Source: an uncultured Bdellovibrionales bacterium (lineage in GTDB: Bacteria; Patescibacteriota; Minisyncoccia; Moranbacterales; DUUL01). Taken from it: a stretch of DNA of 64,000 nucleotides. The translations under genes and the position numbers were made by a program. Location of the stretch: positions 20,325 to 84,324 of the forward strand of contig CAYFUG010000001.1 of NCBI GenBank assembly GCA_964346295.1, read 5' to 3'. The notes under the pieces were generated by a model. It was not told where the DNA came from, did not search any database, and saw only the letters and a list, made by a program, of their open reading frames with translations. Numbering within the stretch: position 1 is the first letter of the stretch; each line of letters begins with the position of its first letter. Positions 519 through 64,000 of this stretch are shown in pieces.

Positions 519-863
519 TCACCTCCAAAATTGAAAATAAGAGATCAAAGCTGCGGTGGTCAGAAGAACCAGAAAGGCGAAGGCGGAAACTAGGCACCAA
601 ATCCGCCTCGTCCTGCCCAGAGAATGCCTTCTGGCCTTTCCCCAAGCCCAGGCAACGGTCGCAGCAAGAAAGAAAACGAAGCCCTCCATCAAGCTGTCCT
701 TGATAAATCCGAAAACCACAAAAAGGACAGCAGCAGCAGCAAACAGCCTGTCCGTGGAGGCTTTTTCTTGATCATCTCTCACGCCAGAGACATCAGAACT
801 CATCTGACCTTCCTTCCTCCCTTTTTTGGGGATTTTAAAGTTTATTTTCTCTATTGTTGTCAT
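519..863 (-). CDS. Putative small membrane protein (114 aa, basic N-terminus, about 3 hydrophobic helices)
   Basis: Three clear hydrophobic segments; convergent with 187..432 and shares the bidirectional terminator at 451-496; no recognisable SD. Confidence 0.3.
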   Translation of the reverse strand: MTTIEKINFKIPKKGRKEGQMSSDVSGVRDDQEKASTDRLFAAAAVLFVVFGFIKDSLMEGFVFFLAATVAWAWGKARRHSLGRTRRIWCLVSAFAFLVLLTTAALISYFQFWR

Positions 864-42169: not shown

Positions 42170-42415
42170 ATGCCTAATAGAAATGGAACCGGCCCTCAAG
42201 GCGCCGGACCCCTCACCGGAAGAGGCTTAGGCCCTTGCGGTAGAGGAGACAACCAAACTCGCCCTGGTAACAGAGCCAACCGATGCTCCAGCGGCTTTAG
42301 AAGTAGTTGGAACAACTGGAGAAATAGGAGTAACAACCAAAGACTCAGAAGAGGATTTCGCAACAATCCTCAACCGAACAACAACGAAACTACTCCTGCT
42401 GATACCTCTAACTAA
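42170..42415 (+). CDS. DUF5320-family small protein
   Basis: MPNRNGTGPQGAGPLTGRGLGPCGRG N-terminus characteristic of the family; SD aaaggagg upstream. Confidence 0.6.
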   Translation: MPNRNGTGPQGAGPLTGRGLGPCGRGDNQTRPGNRANRCSSGFRSSWNNWRNRSNNQRLRRGFRNNPQPNNNETTPADTSN

Positions 42416-51330: not shown

Positions 51331-51479
51331 TGTTGTCCTTGATAAATAAATAACGGACCACTTTAATGAATATTTCTGTTTGAGTTACTTGACAAATATT
51401 CCCCTCCATGCTAGCTTGTGATGCCAACGCTTAAGGGGAGCGTTGCAAACATGCACTTTTATCAAAAAAGGAGGAAAGA

Positions 51480-51608
51480 ATGGCAAGAAAGATCGGGCTT
51501 ATCTTAGCCCTACTGGCACTGGCGGTGGCACTAGCGGGATGCGGTGGGTACGTACCAACTGGTCAGGCCCTACGGTCCCCACGAAAGAGGTATCAGCCGA
51601 CCGGATAG
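51480..51608 (+). CDS. 42-aa lipoprotein precursor in a GC-rich islet (not in ORF track)
   Basis: Strong SD aaaggagg 5 nt upstream; MARKIGLILALLALAVALAGCGG lipobox. Confidence 0.4.
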   Translation: MARKIGLILALLALAVALAGCGGYVPTGQALRSPRKRYQPTG

Positions 51609-51710
51609 CCACAAGTTCTTTGACACCAGCCAATGCGGCCAACCCTTTCAGACTCACAACGCCTAAATCAATTTAAAATTGACAAGCTTTTAAGGTCTTA
51701 AGAGGTCTTA

Positions 51711-55002: not shown

Positions 55003-55344
55003 CTATTTTAGAGAATGGAAGATTTTGCTAAAAATCATAGTTAATTCTCGAGATTCTTTCCATAGTGTCCTTAATTCAGATCTCTTGTCCTTCTCAACTT
55101 CTGCTAACATTTCTAGCCAGTATTCAGTTTCACTAATTTCTTTTCTGCAGATGCTAATTTTATTACGGAAATCTTTTTTAGAACAACCAGCATTAGCTTC
55201 TTTATAGTTAGCTCCAACACTTAGGGCTGATCTAATAAGTTGGTCAACAATGTTTCTGTTTAGGTGGCTTAGCTGAACAGCTCTCACAAGGCTTAAAATG
55301 CTTCTTCCAAATTTCTTAGTTCTTTCTTCTAAGTCATATTTCAT
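55003..55344 (-). CDS. Four-helix-bundle protein (23S rRNA intervening-sequence protein family)
   Basis: RSALSVGANYKEANAGCSKKDFRNKISICRKEISETEYWLEM matches family core. Confidence 0.6.
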   Translation of the reverse strand: MKYDLEERTKKFGRSILSLVRAVQLSHLNRNIVDQLIRSALSVGANYKEANAGCSKKDFRNKISICRKEISETEYWLEMLAEVEKDKRSELRTLWKESRELTMIFSKIFHSLK

Positions 55345-55441: not shown

Positions 55442-56794
55442 TCAGCCGGCTTCCACGCTCACCGCCCTTATCACCTTTCCATTCAAGCGATAGCCCTTCT
55501 TTAAAATCTTGCCTACTTGATCGCCTTTCCCGGCCACTACTTCGTGAATATTAGAATCAATAGCGTCTCCTGGTTGAGTAGCAATCTCTTCTACTCCTCG
55601 TTCTTCTAGTGTTTTTAGGAGTTGATTTTTAATGTGCATAATTCCTGTTACCCAAGGATTGTCTTGCTGATCCTCCGGCACAAAAGCCACTGAGGCCTCA
55701 AAGTTATCCACCACCGGCAGCAGTCCCAAAATCAAATCTTCCGTGGCGTACTTGCGAAATTCTTCTTTTTCCTTTTCTGCTCGTTTACGAAAATTATCCA
55801 GTTCCGCCGCCGCTCTTTTCCAGCTATTCTCTGAATCCAAAAGCTCCAGCGTTCGAGCAGCCTCCTTGAGAGCCTTAAACAAATGAATCTCCATAAAATT
55901 ATCAGCAGCCGGTTTGCCAATTTTTTCTAAAGCCTCTTTAAAGCTGAGCCACTCTAGGCTTTGGTGCTCATTTTCATCAACTCGAGCCAATTCAGGATTG
56001 CCCGTAAAAACCAGATAGTAAGGAGTTTTATAGCCATAAAATCCGTTCCACTGATCAGCGGTGATATCAGGAACATAAATGACTGGGCCTATCTCGATAC
56101 CACTCAAACCCGCTTCCTCCTCGACCTCCCTCTTGACCGCATCCTCTAAAAACTCTCCAGCGCCCAAAGATCCGCCCGGAATATCGTAACTACCCGGATA
56201 AAACAAGTCGCTATCGGAGCGCTTTAACAACAAGACTCGATTTTGATTATCCACCACCACTGCTCGCACTCCTACTCGAAAAAACTTTTGGTCCTTCATT
56301 CGCCGAGCTGCACCAATCAAAGTCTCCCTCTTCTCATTCTCAAAGCCATTTTTTTTATTTAAAAGGTTAATGGCTTCTTCTAAGTTCAACCACTGAAATT
56401 CACTATGCTCTCGCTTGTTCAACTTGACTTTCTGAGGATTCTGACCTTCTTTTAAAAATGTCAAATAGCGCAAACCTCTTTTTTCGTCTTGAAATTGCCG
56501 GCTCTCTTTGGGAAACTCGCTAACTTTAATCACCGTGTCTAATTTTACTTCCAGGCCGGTTTCTTCTCGCACTTCTCTTTTCACTGCCTCCTCCACCGAT
56601 TCTCCTTCATCTACATGGCCACCCGGCAAATCCCATTTTTCGGCGTTCCAAGGAACTTTTTTAGAGCGCTTCAATAGCAGCACTTGCTCATTCTCTCGAT
56701 CTACTATCACTGCCTTGACTGTTAAAGACATCGGACGAGAAAATCGATCTGCTTGCATTTGTTGTTGAGTTTTATCGGAATCTTTTTTCAGCAT
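55442..56794 (-). CDS. grpE: Fusion protein: two tandem Nudix hydrolase domains followed by a GrpE nucleotide-exchange-factor domain
   Basis: Nudix boxes GGHVDEGESVEEAVKREVREETGLEV and GGSLGAGEFLEDAVKREVEEEAGL; C-terminus AAELDNFRKRAEKE...AIDSNIHEVVA...GYRLNGKVIRAVSVEAG (GrpE); single uninterrupted 450-codon frame. Confidence 0.85.
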   Translation of the reverse strand: MLKKDSDKTQQQMQADRFSRPMSLTVKAVIVDRENEQVLLLKRSKKVPWNAEKWDLPGGHVDEGESVEEAVKREVREETGLEVKLDTVIKVSEFPKESRQFQDEKRGLRYLTFLKEGQNPQKVKLNKREHSEFQWLNLEEAINLLNKKNGFENEKRETLIGAARRMKDQKFFRVGVRAVVVDNQNRVLLLKRSDSDLFYPGSYDIPGGSLGAGEFLEDAVKREVEEEAGLSGIEIGPVIYVPDITADQWNGFYGYKTPYYLVFTGNPELARVDENEHQSLEWLSFKEALEKIGKPAADNFMEIHLFKALKEAARTLELLDSENSWKRAAAELDNFRKRAEKEKEEFRKYATEDLILGLLPVVDNFEASVAFVPEDQQDNPWVTGIMHIKNQLLKTLEERGVEEIATQPGDAIDSNIHEVVAGKGDQVGKILKKGYRLNGKVIRAVSVEAG

Positions 56795-57950: not shown

Positions 57951-57977
57951 TTAGCACTCTCACCCCCCGACTGCTAA
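57951..57977. promoter_or_regulatory. CIRCE-like HrcA operator upstream of hrcA
   Basis: TTAGCACTC-N9-GACTGCTAA (one mismatch to consensus right arm). Confidence 0.65.
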
Positions 57978-58131
57978 CTATATTGTAACGCAAAATCACC
58001 GGCTGTCAAGAGGCGAAAAGCTCTTAGTCAAAAGTCCCCAAGGTAGACTAAAAACTACAAACTGGCCAATATCCACTGGCAAATCACAGTCCTCATAAAA
58101 TCAGTAAAACATAGTTCAGACAATGCCCAGA

Positions 58132-58172
58132 CAAAAAAAGAGGCCGGGCCGGAGAATTCCGGCTCGGCCTCT
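58132..58172 (-). terminator. Strong GC-rich intrinsic terminator (bidirectional hairpin)
   Basis: gaggccgggccggagaattccggctcggcctc with A7 on plus / U7 on minus. Confidence 0.7.
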
Positions 58173-58191
58173 TTAGTGGGGGCAGTTTCTT

Positions 58192-58317
58192 CTAAGGAAG
58201 GCATGTGCTTAGCCCTCCTACAGCTTCGGAAAAGCACTTCCCGATAAAAACGCTTGAGAAGTGCAAAAAAATTAAAGCCAAAAGAGAAATCACCACTCCC
58301 GCCAAAACATACTTCAT
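58192..58317 (-). CDS. 41-aa hydrophobic peptide gene with strong SD and its own terminator (not in ORF track)
   Basis: SD gagaaaggagaagg-ATG; MKYVLAGVVISLLALIFLHFSSVFIGKCFSEAVGGLSTCLP; terminator at 58132-58172. Confidence 0.4.
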   Translation of the reverse strand: MKYVLAGVVISLLALIFLHFSSVFIGKCFSEAVGGLSTCLP

Positions 58318-58677
58318 ACCTTCTCCTTTCTCGGCCCGCCGTTGCGAGCCGTTTATTGTTGGCGTTAGGTGACATTGTCCCTTGCTTTTCCTAATTTGTC
58401 AACCCCAGTTATCCCCCAGCTGACAAGCTGACTCTCAAAATTGCTCGCTGTCTTTTCAGAAAGCCTCTGCTCAGCTTTCTTACCAGCCTTCTTCTCAGTC
58501 TTCCTCTCAACCTTCCTCTTAGTCTTCCCTGTTGATAAATATTCTTGACAATCACTAGCTTGTCTGCTACCTTGACCACCGTTGGAATGGCCCAAGCTTG
58601 GGTCAATTGAACCGTCCAGGCGCCTAATGTCATCGGGCGCTGGACTAAACAAATCCTCACACGAAAGGAGGAAAAAG

Positions 58678-59058
58678 ATGGCAAAACGGAAATTGGAGGC
58701 TTGGTGCCCCTGGACGGCCCTGGCGCTAGTGGCGCTGCTGCTGGTGGCACTGACTTGCGGCATAGCCTGCGAGAAGAAGGTCCAGGCTGCCCCAGTGCCC
58801 GCTGGGCACATCAACGCCCCGGCAGCCACCGGCGCCCAAAACTGCGCTGCCTGCCACACCGCGCCTCTACTCTCAGGAATAGACTGGGGCGAACGGGACG
58901 GAAGAGACGGAAGCGGAGACTGCCCTCCGCCGCCTCCATCTGACATCACCGGAAACGAGCCCCCCGTCATGTTAGGGGACAGTGGCGGTGGCGACGGTGA
59001 TCGCTGGAGCCCGCCGAATTCGCCCTTTCCAACAAGTCCGCCGAGAGCAAAAAGTTAA
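58678..59058 (+). CDS. 126-aa GC-rich lipoprotein with a CxxCH motif and Pro/Gly/Asp-rich tail; the minus-strand ORFs here (58365..58970, 58409..58750) are likely GC-driven artefacts
   Basis: SD aaaggagg; MAKRKLEAW...LVALLLVALTCGIAC lipobox-like signal; NCAACHTAP; followed by terminator 59068-59114. Confidence 0.5.
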   Translation: MAKRKLEAWCPWTALALVALLLVALTCGIACEKKVQAAPVPAGHINAPAATGAQNCAACHTAPLLSGIDWGERDGRDGSGDCPPPPPSDITGNEPPVMLGDSGGGDGDRWSPPNSPFPTSPPRAKS

Positions 59059-59067
59059 ATAGGCGGC

Positions 59068-59114
59068 AACACCCCGTTCGGAGAACCACTTTCCGAGCGG
59101 GGTGGTTTTTTTAT
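59068..59114 (+). terminator. Intrinsic terminator after the GC-rich lipoprotein gene
   Basis: caccccgttcgg...ccgagcggggtg hairpin plus T8. Confidence 0.7.
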
Positions 59115-59384
59115 TTTAAGCCCCACCTTCTCTCTGTATCTCTCCTATTACTTGCCTCCTCCTCTCCCCTTGACAATTTCCACCATTGAGCTATTTTTAA
59201 AGGCTTTCTGGGGAGTTTTTCCCTCCTTTTATCCTCGGAAAGCAAGCGCCTTGATCACCTCAACGAGGGAGGTCGAGGCGCTTTTTCTTTGCCTATCATT
59301 CGCCTACAAAAAACAAGTTCTTGCCAAAAAGCCAAAAAGTTACTCTCTCAAATCCTTCAAATCCCCTTCCGGCTAAAGCTGCCC

Positions 59385-59412
59385 TTGTCATTTTTTCCTC
59401 TTTCGCTATAAT
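59385..59412 (+). promoter_or_regulatory. Near-consensus sigma-70-type promoter (TTGTCA-16-TATAAT)
   Basis: ttgtca ttttttcctctttcgc tataat. Confidence 0.5.
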
Positions 59413-59418
59413 TACTCT

Positions 59419-59521
59419 TAGCGATTCACAAGCAGCTCTGCAAATCAGATCTGCGAACTGAAGCAAACAGAACATTAAAATATCTACCATACTAGACAAC
59501 GGGAGGGGGTTGTTGTTTTTT
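59419..59521 (+). ncRNA. Candidate about 100-nt small RNA or terminated leader transcript between promoter and a short terminator
   Basis: Promoter at 59385-59412; terminator-like acaacgggagggggttgttgtttttt at 59496-59521; no ORF with SD on plus strand. Confidence 0.25.
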
Positions 59522-59906
59522 GCTTTTTGTAGATTAAACACCACGAATTGTTTATAAGTTGTTTATAAGTTGAAAATTCATGACTCTAGTGTAAATTAAT
59601 CCGAGCTAAGACTATCCCAGTATTAGGCAAATTGTCCTAACTGTCATTCCCGCGACTGTGTGCCTACCGAAGCATTGCGAAGGGGCAAGGCGGGAATCTA
59701 GGATTAATCCACTGGAATCCACTGGATCCCCGCTTTTGCGAGGATGATGACACAAACGCATAAGTCCTAAGCTTGCTAGATTGAGCAGTTAAAAATATAA
59801 CCAAAGGTCGAGGGCACTTTACCAGGTTTAGCCTTTAAAAAACTTGGATTTATTTAGAAAAATTAGGAGGGAAAAATTTAACTAACACAATAATAAAATA
59901 ATCAAA

Positions 59907-60027
59907 GGGACTTGCATATTTTAGGAAATTTTTAGGCAAACTCGAGCAGCGAGCGAAGTGTACTGAAAGGTACGGTGAGCGAGTAGCGGAGAGTTTAACA
60001 CCAAAATTTTCAAAATAGGAAAGTCCC
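59907..60027 (+). repeat. Dispersed intergenic repeat, copy F (ends 9 nt before the TasA-like gene ATG)
   Basis: TIR gggactt/aagtccc; gtgtactgaaaggtacggtgagcgagtagcggagagtttaacaccaaaattttcaaaataggaaagtcccc; about 90% identical to copy E over the 3' 60 nt. Confidence 0.75.
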
Positions 60028-60036
60028 CACACCTTA

Positions 60037-60783
60037 ATGAAAAAAATTCTAGCTAGTTTTGTAGCCCTTTTAGCTGCTTTGGCAGTTACTGGCTACGGAA
60101 CTTACGCCCTTTGGAGCGACACCGAGACATCCACCGGAAACACCATTACCGCCGGAAGTTTAGACTTATCAGTGCCCGAAACTTTCATTGCCGTAGCTGC
60201 TGTTTCTGCTGACTTTGACGGCGACGGAACCGACGACTACACCACTGCCGTTTACCCAGGAGTAGGTTACTTTGGAACCGCTGACGGACCTCAAGCTGAT
60301 TCCATGATTTCCTTAACAAGCGACACTGCCACTTATGGAACTTACAATGGTGACGGAATGGGCGCCAAAAACTATGACTATGTTCCTGTTATTAACAACG
60401 GAACTATTGATGGACAGTTAACAGTAGAAGTTGGTGCTGTCTCAGATGAAGAGAACGGCCAAACCAGCGCTGAACTAGTACCTGGAGTAGACGGAACTCC
60501 TAATGTTGGGGAGCTTAGCCCATATGTAGAAATTCGCTTTCACATTGATGTAGACGGCGATGAAACCTACGAAGACACTACCGGATGGCAAGCAATCTCC
60601 AGTGCTCCTAATACCTCAACCAATCCACTTTGGAATTTTGCCAATACCGCAATTATTCCGGCTCAAAACTCTGCTAATCCTGCTCGTCTTATGATGGAAT
60701 ACCGAGTAGACAGTGCTGCTGGCAATGACACCATGACCGACACTGTAGATTTTGAACTTATCTACGATTTCCAACAAATCTAG
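60037..60783 (+). CDS. TasA/camelysin-like secreted protein with SipW-cognate-class signal peptide
   Basis: MKKILASFVALLAALAVTGYGTYALWSDTETSTGNTITAGSLDLSV. Confidence 0.8.
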   Translation: MKKILASFVALLAALAVTGYGTYALWSDTETSTGNTITAGSLDLSVPETFIAVAAVSADFDGDGTDDYTTAVYPGVGYFGTADGPQADSMISLTSDTATYGTYNGDGMGAKNYDYVPVINNGTIDGQLTVEVGAVSDEENGQTSAELVPGVDGTPNVGELSPYVEIRFHIDVDGDETYEDTTGWQAISSAPNTSTNPLWNFANTAIIPAQNSANPARLMMEYRVDSAAGNDTMTDTVDFELIYDFQQI

Positions 60784-61276: not shown

Positions 61277-61885
61277 ATGAAAAAACTCTCTAATTGGATC
61301 ATCAACCTCATCTTTGTCCTCTCTTTGGCAATTGCCTTGTTTTTTATCCTGGCTCGTTTCGTGCCCCAGTTCGGCTATAACATTTTTGCCGTCCGTAGTG
61401 GATCCATGGAACCAGCCATTAAAAAATGGGATCTCATTATCACTCAAAAACAAGACCATTACCAAACAGAAGACATTATTACCTTTCGCCGAGATCATAA
61501 AACCGTAATCACTCACCGCATTATTGAAGTCCAAAAAGAAGGCGGCCAGTGCGATTTTATAACTAAAGGAGACGCCAACCAAGATCCGGATCGTAAAGAT
61601 GTTCCGGAAAGAAGAGTGCTTGGCAAGATGGTAACTCGGATTCCTTGGATTGGCATCAGTTTTAATTATCGCCGCCAACTCCTAGCCGGAGCCGCTCTCT
61701 TAGCAGTTATCGCCGCCGGCTTTTACCTCTCTAACATTAAGAAAAATTTCGATAATAGCAAGCCAAAATCCCGAGTTGATAAGTCTAACCAAACTAAGCC
61801 GAAAGACTCTCCGGCACCAAACCCAGAACAGTCAAAGAGTCAGGTCAACCAAAATCCTGAAAATAGACCGGGACCCTTCGCCTAG
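61277..61885 (+). CDS. sipW: Signal peptidase I, SipW (archaeal/ER S26B) type, with C-terminal TM and basic/Pro-rich tail
   Basis: AVRSGSMEP (Ser box), ITHRIIE (His box), KGDANQDPD. Confidence 0.85.
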   Translation: MKKLSNWIINLIFVLSLAIALFFILARFVPQFGYNIFAVRSGSMEPAIKKWDLIITQKQDHYQTEDIITFRRDHKTVITHRIIEVQKEGGQCDFITKGDANQDPDRKDVPERRVLGKMVTRIPWIGISFNYRRQLLAGAALLAVIAAGFYLSNIKKNFDNSKPKSRVDKSNQTKPKDSPAPNPEQSKSQVNQNPENRPGPFA

Positions 61886-61932: not shown

Positions 61933-64000
61933 ATGATTCCCTTTAAAAAATTCTGGAAGCACTCTCTTCGTGTCACTTCAGTTTGGCTCTCTATTGGAGC
62001 CTTGCTACTACTGAGCTTCCCTGGATCCTCTCAAGCCGCCTACAGCAACCGCGTCACCTCTTCTGGCGGCGGAGAGAAAATGAGCGCCGGCAGCATCGAC
62101 GCCGAGTTAAACTTGGTTACCGACTTCAAAGCTCTCCCCATCGAAGCAGGCTCAACCAACTACGCTGAACTAGAAATCATCAATTCTGGGATCTTGGGGC
62201 TAACCTACCAATCAACTAGCCAAAAAACTTCCGGGTCTGACAACCTCTACCAAAATTTAGAAGCAGAATTGATTCAAGACGGAGTCACCCAGTGGACCGG
62301 TTTCTTACAAGACCTAGATTTCACCTCCCCGGAACTTGCCTCCACCGATCTCCATCAACTCAGAATCGAAGTTTCTCTTCCGGCAGATTCCACCTCCAGC
62401 CTGGAGGAGCTTGATTGTGAATTTGAAATCAACTTCCTCGCCTCCCAGCCCGACGCCTTAGGCGGCTGGACCGACCAAGAGACCCTCCCTGGTCAAAGCC
62501 TCTCCTCGGGCGATTGGACCGCTCCCGAAGTTCCAGAAAATTTAGGTTTTAATGTTGCCAGTGAATCTGAAACCCCTAACGAAGGCAATCCAGTGGCCTC
62601 TGATTTAGATTTAAATTGCACCACTACCGGCAAAGTTTACACCAACGAAAACAGTGTGGCTCATAATTGGAGCGACGAATCCGATTCTGATTTGGGACCT
62701 GTTAAATACGAACGCCTGGTGACTTATCCCGACGGAAGAACCGGAGTTTTTGGTCCCTTGGAAAATAATTACACCGATTTCTCTTCTTTTGGGGGAGGAG
62801 GTGGTACCGAAGGCACTTGGGGCGTCCAAGTTCGTTCCTATGATGACACTGCTAACTATTCCGCCTGGTCTGATAAATGCGAGATTGTTTATGACAAAAC
62901 CTCTCCCACTGTAGCAATTACCAATCCCGCTGACGGCGATCCCCTGGAGGGTCTTGTTAATATCCGAGGAACCGTAGAAGATGCCAATCCTCACCACTAT
63001 TATCTAGTGATAACAGATAGCAATGGTAATAAAATTGGCCCCGGCACCGTTAACGAAACTGCTTCCTTTGCTGATAAAGTGCTCTACAACTGGAACACCG
63101 CGGAATACCCCGATGGAGACTATGTGATTGAACTAGCCGCCCGAGACAGCGCCGGCAACCGCTACCCCACCTCCGGTAATATCGAAGTCAATGTCACCGT
63201 TGACAATCCCCTAAAAATCACCAATGTAACCTCTGAAACTCCTACTACCGGAACCACCAAGGGGACGGAAGGCGGTGAAAATTCCGTAGAGGTAGAAATC
63301 ACCTGGGACACCGATATTGCTGCCACTTCTCAAGTAGTTATTGACGACAAAAGCCACGCTCATATCGACGACTACTTTGACTCTACCGTTGAGGATTCTT
63401 CTTTAGTTACTTCCCACTCTCAAATCGCTTCAGGCCTCGCCAAGGACACCACCTACTATTACCGCGTCATTAGTAAAGATTCTGCCACTGGAACCAAAAT
63501 CGCCTCAAAAGAATACACTTTTATTTCAACCATTGGAGGAGAAGATGACCCAGCAGCTGATCCAGGCGAAATAGTAATGAATGAATTTTTGCCTAATCCC
63601 TCAAAGGGATCTTACCCTAGTGAAAATGCTTTGCCCCTAAAAGAAGGCGAATGGGTGGAGCTTTACAACACCACCGATAGTGAGATTGATTTGAAAAATT
63701 ACTACTTAGAAGACGACCCCGATAAAGGCGATCACACCATAATTATTGATAACACTCGCACCAAAAGCGGCGATACTCTGATTCCAGCTAATGGCTATCT
63801 AGTGGTCTATTTAAAAAATACTGCTGGTGCAGGATCAGTTGGGGCTATCCTCAACAACGAAGGTGACACTCTTAGTTTTTACAACAAAGACGACCAGTTA
63901 CTAGATGATTTCACCTACGACGGCGGAGGCTCGGATGTCCCGGAAGACAAAACTTTTGCTCGCTTGCCAGATGGCCACGGCCCCTGGATTGACCCAGAGC
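61933..64000 (+). CDS. Very large SipW-cognate secreted protein with Ig-like and lamin-tail (LTD) domains; partial, runs off the window end
   Basis: Open frame from ATG 61933 to window end (checked codon by codon); N-terminus AAYSNRVTSSGGGEKMSAGSIDAELNL parallels the TasA-like signal region; EWVELYNTTDSEIDLKNYYLEDD LTD motif. Confidence 0.7.
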   Translation, partial: MIPFKKFWKHSLRVTSVWLSIGALLLLSFPGSSQAAYSNRVTSSGGGEKMSAGSIDAELNLVTDFKALPIEAGSTNYAELEIINSGILGLTYQSTSQKTSGSDNLYQNLEAELIQDGVTQWTGFLQDLDFTSPELASTDLHQLRIEVSLPADSTSSLEELDCEFEINFLASQPDALGGWTDQETLPGQSLSSGDWTAPEVPENLGFNVASESETPNEGNPVASDLDLNCTTTGKVYTNENSVAHNWSDESDSDLGPVKYERLVTYPDGRTGVFGPLENNYTDFSSFGGGGGTEGTWGVQVRSYDDTANYSAWSDKCEIVYDKTSPTVAITNPADGDPLEGLVNIRGTVEDANPHHYYLVITDSNGNKIGPGTVNETASFADKVLYNWNTAEYPDGDYVIELAARDSAGNRYPTSGNIEVNVTVDNPLKITNVTSETPTTGTTKGTEGGENSVEVEITWDTDIAATSQVVIDDKSHAHIDDYFDSTVEDSSLVTSHSQIASGLAKDTTYYYRVISKDSATGTKIASKEYTFISTIGGEDDPAADPGEIVMNEFLPNPSKGSYPSENALPLKEGEWVELYNTTDSEIDLKNYYLEDDPDKGDHTIIIDNTRTKSGDTLIPANGYLVVYLKNTAGAGSVGAILNNEGDTLSFYNKDDQLLDDFTYDGGGSDVPEDKTFARLPDGHGPWIDPE

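Follow-up and report, generated by a model that had tools for sequence, protein, structure and literature searches.

The DNA considered here is a 64-kb stretch of a tiny, Moranbacteria-like fermentative bacterium of the Candidate Phyla Radiation (CPR), positions 23277-87276 of JGI metagenome contig Ga0153774_1000055, and is called the window below. Its subject is a GC-rich islet that holds a plus-strand open reading frame (ORF) of 126 amino acids (aa) at nucleotides (nt) 58678-59058. This ORF is probably a translated gene, and its product would most likely be a small membrane-anchored or exported protein without known relatives. The fuller reading preferred here, held with slightly less than even confidence, is that of a real, independently transcribed gene for a small exported protein, possibly a borrowed cytochrome c in decay. 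Cytochrome ancestry taken by itself, as judged from the sequence, has about an even chance, and in its present form the protein probably does not work as a cytochrome. Haem binding is a lead and no finding. Overall the ORF is judged a real but ordinary orphan gene of its lineage, possibly a relic of transfer.

The GC islet, its reading frame and its product

A sliding scan of the whole window in pieces of 200 nt (mean 42.2%, standard deviation 5.4%) finds one strong GC peak, 58588-59110, with a maximum of 68.5% (z about 4.9). Every 200-nt piece starting from 58588 to 58929 has at least 58% GC, and a second peak at 62322 is merely marginal. An earlier reading of the same DNA, made without database searches and called the sequence-only reading here, had described 58380-59060 as GC-rich and as covered by overlapping ORFs on both strands. 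Both statements were borne out, GC being significantly above the mean and the open frames being of 158/126 and 80 aa on the plus strand and of 201 and 113 aa on the minus strand. The locus lies within 2.3 kb that are free of long ORFs, with the hrcA promoter and its CIRCE (controlling inverted repeat of chaperone expression) operator on one side and a cluster of camelysin-like and SipW-like genes on the other. It is 100% identical in four assemblies (JGI 3300012002, Logan ERR1878606, Logan ERR2437277, and ENA ERZ922771), which derive from at least two sequencing runs plus the JGI sample; independent assembly of the identical sequence from separate runs rules out an assembly chimera.

The 126-aa ORF has 64% GC (z 4.9). 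Ala, Pro, and Gly make up 50 of its 126 residues, and recoding of the protein with native codons gives an expected 57% GC, so that the content of these residues accounts for about two thirds of the excess above 42%, and synonymous codon choice for the remainder. GC at third codon positions (GC3) is about 0.656 as compared with 0.448 expected from native-codon recoding (z 4.9), and lies above that of all 45 native genes (maximum 0.588).

The plus frame is favored by an optimal Shine-Dalgarno (SD) site, by the KRK and a 20-residue hydrophobic segment after the ATG, by a nearby terminator and by a leader with strand-specific structure (Table 1). A strong SD site at this ORF (AAAGGAGG at 58664-58671, -14.7 kcal/mol) and a strong terminator behind it (15-bp stem, T7) had been claimed by the sequence-only reading, and both are there; the ATG is at 58678 and not at 58679. 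The terminator begins 12 nt after the stop codon, and its region (59059-59115) folds with z -5.7 on the plus strand. For the leader (58572-58677) z is -4.15 on the plus strand vs. -2.4 on the minus strand, and the third of its predicted hairpins (58654-58672) pairs UCCUC with GAGGA of the SD site. A putative promoter lies at 58532-58573. It includes a 9-mer, CTAGCTTGT (58555-58563), that is also found at 51411, upstream of an SD-led ORF of 42 aa, and of which the window has three exact copies where about 0.5 would be expected. The enrichment disappears when one mismatch is permitted (19 vs. 13.6 expected), and the shared 9-mer is a weak hint that the two small ORFs may have a common -10 region.

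The 126-aa product has a KRK N-terminus, a hydrophobic helix at residues 11-35, CAACH at residues 56-60 (nt 58843-58857) and a Pro/Gly/Asp-rich tail that includes …DRWSPPNSPFPTSPPR. The CxxCH motif and the PPPPP and GGGDGD runs seen by the sequence-only reading are all present. The Kyte-Doolittle 19-residue maximum is 2.52 (residues 13-31), which makes a good hydrophobic signal or anchor. Lipoboxes were tested as [LVI][ASTVI][GAS]C after a charged n-region and an h-region, with PROSITE PS51257-like and G+LPP patterns. The claim of lipobox leaders held for the 42-aa ORF (LAG/C, passing both patterns) and not for the 126-aa ORF, whose leader fails both (ALT/C27, GIA/C31). A single-sequence AF2 model, built without an alignment, has helices at 11-35 and 52-65 and low-confidence coil elsewhere (mean predicted local distance difference test score 54), a confidence too low for a fold search; the product is probably mostly disordered and lineage-specific. 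A word-seeded search of 5.8 billion proteins or clusters returned only the ORF itself, and a full HMMER (phmmer) search of 1.84 billion representative proteins returned the query alone. A match among PDB sequences was rejected as a chance RING-finger-like spacing of Cys (E 0.16 or worse).

In the proposed working of the locus, the promoter-like site, weak to moderate in strength, would drive a transcript of about 530 nt. Its leader of roughly 100 nt would form two stable hairpins and a short third, which would partly mask the strong SD site and could modulate initiation. The SD site would recruit ribosomes to the ATG at 58678, and the product would be inserted or exported via its N-terminal helix, with the CAACH segment and the Pro/Gly/Asp-rich disordered tail outside the cell. 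Transcription would end at the terminator. Of all this the sequence shows the signals, and transcription, translation, export and any ligand are inferred. As to its origin, the gene may have been acquired horizontally as a lipoprotein monohaem cytochrome c of PF13442 type that then lost its C-terminal half. This origin is proposed because of the non-native codon choice and because of the layout, which runs from signal peptide and Cys through a linker of about 30 residues to AQNCAACH, a W at +10 and PPxDxTG.

Likeness to lipoprotein cytochromes c and the question of origin

The lead to cytochromes was found by back-translating 8-mers of the 126-aa ORF and scanning metagenome and viral contigs with them. 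The shared 8-mer AQNCAACH retrieved small lipoprotein monohaem cytochromes c on GC-rich contigs (L082-L085; P0002-P0121). These are proteins of roughly 150 aa whose genes adjoin multicopper oxidase, SCO1/SenC or CopD genes, and over 8,000 proteins belong to their family at E below 1e-5, every one of PF13442/PF00034. The family members are lipoproteins that pass both lipobox patterns, with a spacing from Cys to CxxCH like that of the 126-aa ORF. BLASTP of the ORF against the family gives 39.7 bits and 38% identity over 85 aa (residues 11-93), and hhalign against a 36-sequence family profile gives a probability of 95.4% and an E of 1.8e-8, valid for a single comparison only. The match has a pattern, with a W exactly 10 residues past the His, followed by PPSDITG where the family has PPHDETG (5 of 7 identical). 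The family hidden Markov model (HMM) scores the ORF at 21.8 bits. When this HMM was run against 5,498 six-frame segments from 467 kb of Moranbacteria DNA, only the 126-aa ORF matched (E 7e-5), the next best segment having E 0.42. In shuffle controls with AQNCAACH held fixed, the real score was reached in 6 of 2000 cases for the downstream flank, in 16 of 2000 for the upstream flank and in none of 2000 for both flanks together.

The likeness ends half-way. The C-terminal half of the family after G80 (GHTWHH…DMPAF with the distal Met ligand…W) was absent by tblastn from every frame of the window. A frameshifted cytochrome half, for which the other frames were searched by tblastn, was rejected, as nothing was found. 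The 126-aa protein has a lone, unaligned Met at residue 98, 38 residues past the His.

Composition outside the native range, as seen in GC3, together with absence from relatives is found for the 126-aa ORF and not for the 42-aa ORF. Of the horizontal transfer that the sequence-only reading had suggested for both cassettes, the part concerning the 126-aa ORF is thus plausible (GC3 z 4.9), and there is no evidence for the part concerning the 42-aa ORF (GC3 z 1.3). Beside hrcA in 26 related Moranbacteria loci, which keep the order hrcA-grpE-(hsp20)-dnaK, there is nothing similar to the 126-aa ORF and no GC peak. Plasmid and phage collections contain no DNA similar to it, and the protein, plasmid and phage searches point to no donor lineage or close homologue. 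The host itself has no close relative for comparison, since its HrcA is at most 55% identical to relatives in metagenome-assembled genomes of Candidatus Moraniibacteriota. A scan of the window for tRNA and tmRNA genes found none. Flanking repeats were considered as insertion scars and rejected, the block having only a weak 22-nt inverted repeat (73% complementary).

Several points weigh against a borrowed and decayed cytochrome gene. The family was picked for sharing AQNCAACH, out of more than 600 pattern-matched stretches, so that the similarity of the flanks is after correction only suggestive. A Pfam search of the 126-aa ORF lists no cytochrome model even at E 10, and the searches of 5.8 billion and 1.84 billion proteins gave it no database-wide significance. 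The -10 element of the promoter-like region is weak, and the region is unlisted by a consensus promoter scan. GC1/2/3 of the ORF are flat (0.646/0.622/0.654), without codon-position periodicity, and native codon-usage scores are near zero in the plus frame and in the antisense frame. The four assemblies contain zero variants from which selection (dN/dS) on the plus frame or covariation could be read. Finally, a recent transfer is expected to leave a close relative and GC3 > GC1 > GC2, and an old one to have lost its GC excess; given the flat values, the lack of a close relative and the lasting GC3 excess, neither a recent nor an ancient transfer fits comfortably.

The gene could also be real and its likeness to cytochrome c due to chance, the product being a small exported protein that is specific to the lineage and either evolves fast or arose de novo. 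This is a possibility to be taken seriously, although somewhat unlikely. It agrees with the lack of any significant hit in either protein collection and of a Pfam cytochrome match. CxxCH alone is common, occurring 18 times by chance in the 5,498 six-frame segments mentioned above, and the motif and the flank matches may be by-products of an Ala/Cys/Pro-rich, GC-rich sequence. The downstream flank, scored with the signal peptide intact (6 of 2000, p about 0.003), fails correction for the best of many families. However, the match is patterned and not just compositional, as the identical 8-mer, the W at +10 and PPxDxTG come in the right order, the lipoprotein-type architecture is spaced like that of the family, and a foreign GC3 is not expected of a native de novo gene.

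Less probable still, and on the whole rather unlikely, is an untranslated islet, which would be either a structured non-coding RNA with the promoter and terminator described above or an inert remnant of foreign DNA. High GC within an intergenic region as long as 2.3 kb, in an AT-rich genome, is a classic signature of structured RNA, and for the 546-nt unit as a whole the plus-strand fold has z -4.7. The flat GC1/2/3, the disagreement of gene callers about the strand and the absence of protein homologues on either strand point in the same direction. The fold signal is, however, located in the leader (z about -4.2) and the terminator (z -5.7) and does not extend across the ORF body, where z is about -2 on both strands and so not strand-specific. 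Searched with Rfam 15 at the gathering threshold, the window gives no match anywhere, and at permissive E (up to 10) there is only noise in 58000-59700 and nothing usable in 59500-60100. An optimal SD site, an ATG, KRK and a hydrophobic helix in that exact order would moreover be an unlikely coincidence.

That the ORF encodes a minimal but functional c-type cytochrome, or another haem- or metal-binding CxxCH protein on the surface of the CPR cell, is very unlikely. In favor of it, the CxxCH is part of a short predicted helix and follows an export signal, there is a resemblance to real monohaem lipoprotein cytochromes over residues 11-93, and Met 98 lies 38 residues past the His. c-Type cytochromes have been reported in one Parcubacterium, which carries several (PMC5220378). 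Against it stand the absence of the conserved C-terminal half in every frame and the predicted disorder of the tail. The haem-maturation genes ccm and ResB, whose presence the sequence-only reading had proposed to check, were sought and not seen; the roughly 60 ORFs inspected, in about 80 kb of the genome, include none for Ccm, Ccs, ResB or CcdA. The window has no respiratory genes and instead a fermentative set, with FeFe hydrogenase and glycolysis. Of the c-type-haem reading, the CxxCH and a sub-threshold family likeness are left, and it lacks a significant search result, the C-terminal half and visible maturation genes. It is very unlikely that a functional, miniaturized CxxCH protein, binding haem c or a metal and displayed on the cell surface, was taken from a respiring neighbor or host for scavenging of haem or metal or for electron exchange with a partner, and works without the cytochrome C-terminal half and any visible maturation system.

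Gene callers are split on the strand, ENA calling the plus 126-aa ORF and JGI, NCBI and Logan the minus 201-aa ORF (58365-58970), and the 201-aa "protein" is present in public protein collections (NCBI, JGI, Logan, ENA). Both frames share third codon positions, as shadow frames of GC-rich genes usually do, and the 201-aa ORF is most likely a shadow of the SD-led plus ORF. That it is the real gene is highly improbable, for although no ORF of the locus is longer and three pipelines call it, its start has no SD site (duplex +1.0 kcal/mol) and no upstream promoter-like site in the scan, its low-complexity sequence has no Pfam match and, in the word-seeded search of 5.8 billion proteins, no homologue but itself, and it spans the SD site, leader and promoter region of the plus strand and also a minus-strand promoter-like site (58402-58374). 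The sequence-only reading had set one outcome against itself, namely peptides matching nothing together with true homology of this minus-strand ORF; the first is found for the 126-aa peptide and the second is not.

Small SD-led genes and the neighborhood

The sequence-only reading had called SD sites otherwise weak in this DNA, and for the 45 long ORFs of the window this is correct. Their mean duplex energy with an anti-SD is -1.5 kcal/mol and the best -8.8 kcal/mol; the window contains no 16S gene from which the host's own anti-SD could be read. Even with the best of 40 candidate starts taken for each long ORF, only 2 of the 45 reach -11 kcal/mol. Five short ORFs, by comparison, reach -11.2 to -15.4 kcal/mol with AAAGGAGG-type SD sites. 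SD-led translation of small genes thus appears to operate in this organism, which is plausible because one of the five (42170-42415) is a genuine DUF5320 member. The strong SD site had also been taken as a sign of horizontal transfer, and this argument has to be given up, as compositionally native small genes such as the DUF5320 member (-15.4 kcal/mol) have equally strong sites.

The second islet claimed at 51440-51700 shrinks to its ORF. The segment as a whole has 49.4% GC, and only the 129 nt that encode the 42-aa lipoprotein precursor are raised (58.9%, z 2.6). The GC content of this ORF is due to the amino acid composition of its Ala/Leu/Gly-rich signal peptide, its GC3 excess is not significant, and it gives no evidence of transfer. 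A promoter-like site, TTGACA-17-TAGCTT, lies upstream of it. It is uncalled in every public assembly and has no counterpart in the 26 related loci.

The 41-aa hydrophobic peptide gene (Table 1) points away from the 126-aa gene. Its end is marked by a 17-bp GC-rich hairpin, beyond which lies the hrcA promoter; public gene calls have in its place an ORF of 49 or 106 aa running through the hairpin. Between the two divergent promoter-like sites, at 58466-58525 (plus strand), there is a CT-rich repeat with a 12-nt period (TCTTCTCAGYCT-like, about five units), which could be a protein-binding array or simple sequence.

Downstream of the islet, 59170-59292 (plus strand) is a candidate small RNA with a promoter-like TTGACA at 59170, a spacer of 16 and TATTTT, and with two hairpins, the second of which is a terminator (minimum free energy -44.2 kcal/mol, z -5.8). 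Its 17-nt loop GUUUUUCCCUCCUUUUA exposes an anti-SD that is complementary at 12 of 13 positions to the SD region 58664-58676. Within the second hairpin lies GAUCACCUC, identical to 9 nt of the canonical 16S rRNA 3' end. The candidate has no Rfam match, and it might regulate the SD-led small genes. A further short unit, 59385-59525 (plus strand), has a TTGTCA-16-TATAAT promoter (11 of 12 positions matching) and a terminator-like hairpin near 59495-59525, and folds no better than shuffled sequence (z -1.0).

The genes of the window form a typical fermentative CPR set, including FeFe hydrogenase, triosephosphate isomerase, iPGM, FtsZ/FtsA, and RtcB, and it also encodes type IV secretion system (T4SS)-type proteins, type IV pilins and the hrcA-grpE-hsp20-dnaK operon. 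The CIRCE/promoter element ahead of hrcA is the only intergenic part with DNA similarity to related Moranbacteria loci. Similarity of 59821-60033 to the related locus L022 (nhmmer E 1.5e-5) was not retained, being a diffuse 75% column identity with no clear element. GrpE (450 aa, 55442-56794, minus strand) is fused to two N-terminal NUDIX domains (Pfam NUDIX E 4e-44, GrpE E 6e-32). Matches of about 270 residues at several related loci suggest that some Moranbacteria have the fusion in common. A 113-aa "23S rRNA intervening sequence protein" gene (PF05635, E 2e-15; about 55003-55344, minus strand, equal to 13627-13965 of L086) lies between grpE and hsp20. On the other side of the islet, 60037-60783 (plus strand) encodes a camelysin/TasA-like secreted protein with an N-terminal Peptidase_M73 match and the leader …TGYGTYALWSDTE. 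It is followed at 61277-61885 (plus strand) by a SipW-like S26 signal peptidase, and further downstream by large surface proteins with LTD domains.

Table 1. Features of the islet, the adjoining hrcA control region and other small genes, in window coordinates
Feature	Position	Strand	Description
Promoter-like region (putative)	58532-58573	+	TTGATA (58532-58537) -18- TAGCTT (58556-58561), or TTGACA (58545-58550) -17- TACCTT (58568-58573); found by eye
Structured 5' leader (predicted folds)	58581-58672	+	three hairpins: 58581-58612, 58614-58645 and short 58654-58672
SD site	58664-58671	+	AAAGGAGG; 6 nt before ATG 58678; predicted anti-SD duplex -14.7 kcal/mol
126-aa ORF	58678-59058	+	ATG to TAA; by translation; called as a gene in ENA contig k127_302354
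Intrinsic terminator	59070-59113	+	15-bp stem (9 GC pairs) and 5-nt loop at 59070-59104, then T7 run; terminator scan
Antisense 201-aa ORF	58365-58970	-	gene call of the JGI, NCBI and Logan pipelines; third codon positions in common with those of the plus ORF
41-aa hydrophobic peptide gene	58192-58317	-	MKYVLAGVVISLLALIFLHF…; uncalled; SD site GAAAGGAGAAGG, -11.7 kcal/mol; promoter-like site 58402-58374; hairpin 58137-58174
42-aa lipoprotein-precursor ORF	51480-51608	+	lipobox …ALAG/C, passes both patterns; SD site AAAGGAGG at 51467-51474, -12.2 kcal/mol
DUF5320 member	42170-42415	+	Pfam E 5e-11; SD site -15.4 kcal/mol; compositionally native
94-aa membrane protein, small SD-led gene	519-803	-	unannotated
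CIRCE operator	57951-57977	-	TTAGCAGTC-N9-GAGTGCTAA; ahead of hrcA
Near-consensus promoter	57982-58009	-	TTGACA-16-TACAAT; CIRCE directly downstream, then hrcA

Significance and comparison with known systems

If the 126-aa ORF is a relic of a cytochrome gene, it would be a small but concrete case of a gene passing from GC-rich bacteria that respire to an ultra-small symbiont that ferments, and would show the decay of such a gene into an orphan secreted peptide. Public annotations of the contig probably carry the wrong strand here, with the 201-aa antisense "protein," and appear to overlook several SD-led small genes, e.g., those of 41 and 42 aa. Of wider interest and use is the split between long genes without SD sites and strongly SD-led short genes, which matters for gene calling. 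It also bears on translation initiation in Parcubacteria, where many 16S rRNAs are reportedly without an anti-SD and only 48% carry the motif (PMC9297842). The candidate small RNA beside the islet, with its exposed anti-SD loop, adds to this result.

Compared with the PF13442/PF00034 lipoprotein cytochromes, the 126-aa ORF is alike in its N-terminal signal with Cys, the linker of roughly 30 residues, the identical AQNCAACH, the W at +10, the PPxDxTG-like stretch and the GC-rich coding sequence. It differs from them in that only residues 11-93 align, GHTWHH, DMPAF and the C-terminal helix being missing, in its non-canonical lipobox, in a score below Pfam and database-wide thresholds, and in its host, a fermentative CPR bacterium without visible haem-maturation genes.

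A second system for comparison is the GC-rich intergenic structured RNAs of AT-rich bacteria, a class usually found via screens for intergenic regions of high GC. The locus shares with them a GC island in a long intergenic region, a promoter-like site with a terminator and a folding energy below random. Unlike them, it has no Rfam match and is structured only in leader and terminator, and the island coincides exactly with an SD-led ORF.

A third comparison is with the other small SD-led genes of the same window (51480, 58192-58317, 519-803, and the DUF5320 member), which likewise are short ORFs with a very strong AAAGGAGG-type SD site and a promoter-like site of their own, most of them with hydrophobic N-termini. 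They are native or near-native in composition, whereas the 126-aa ORF alone has a strongly non-native GC3 and an extreme GC peak.

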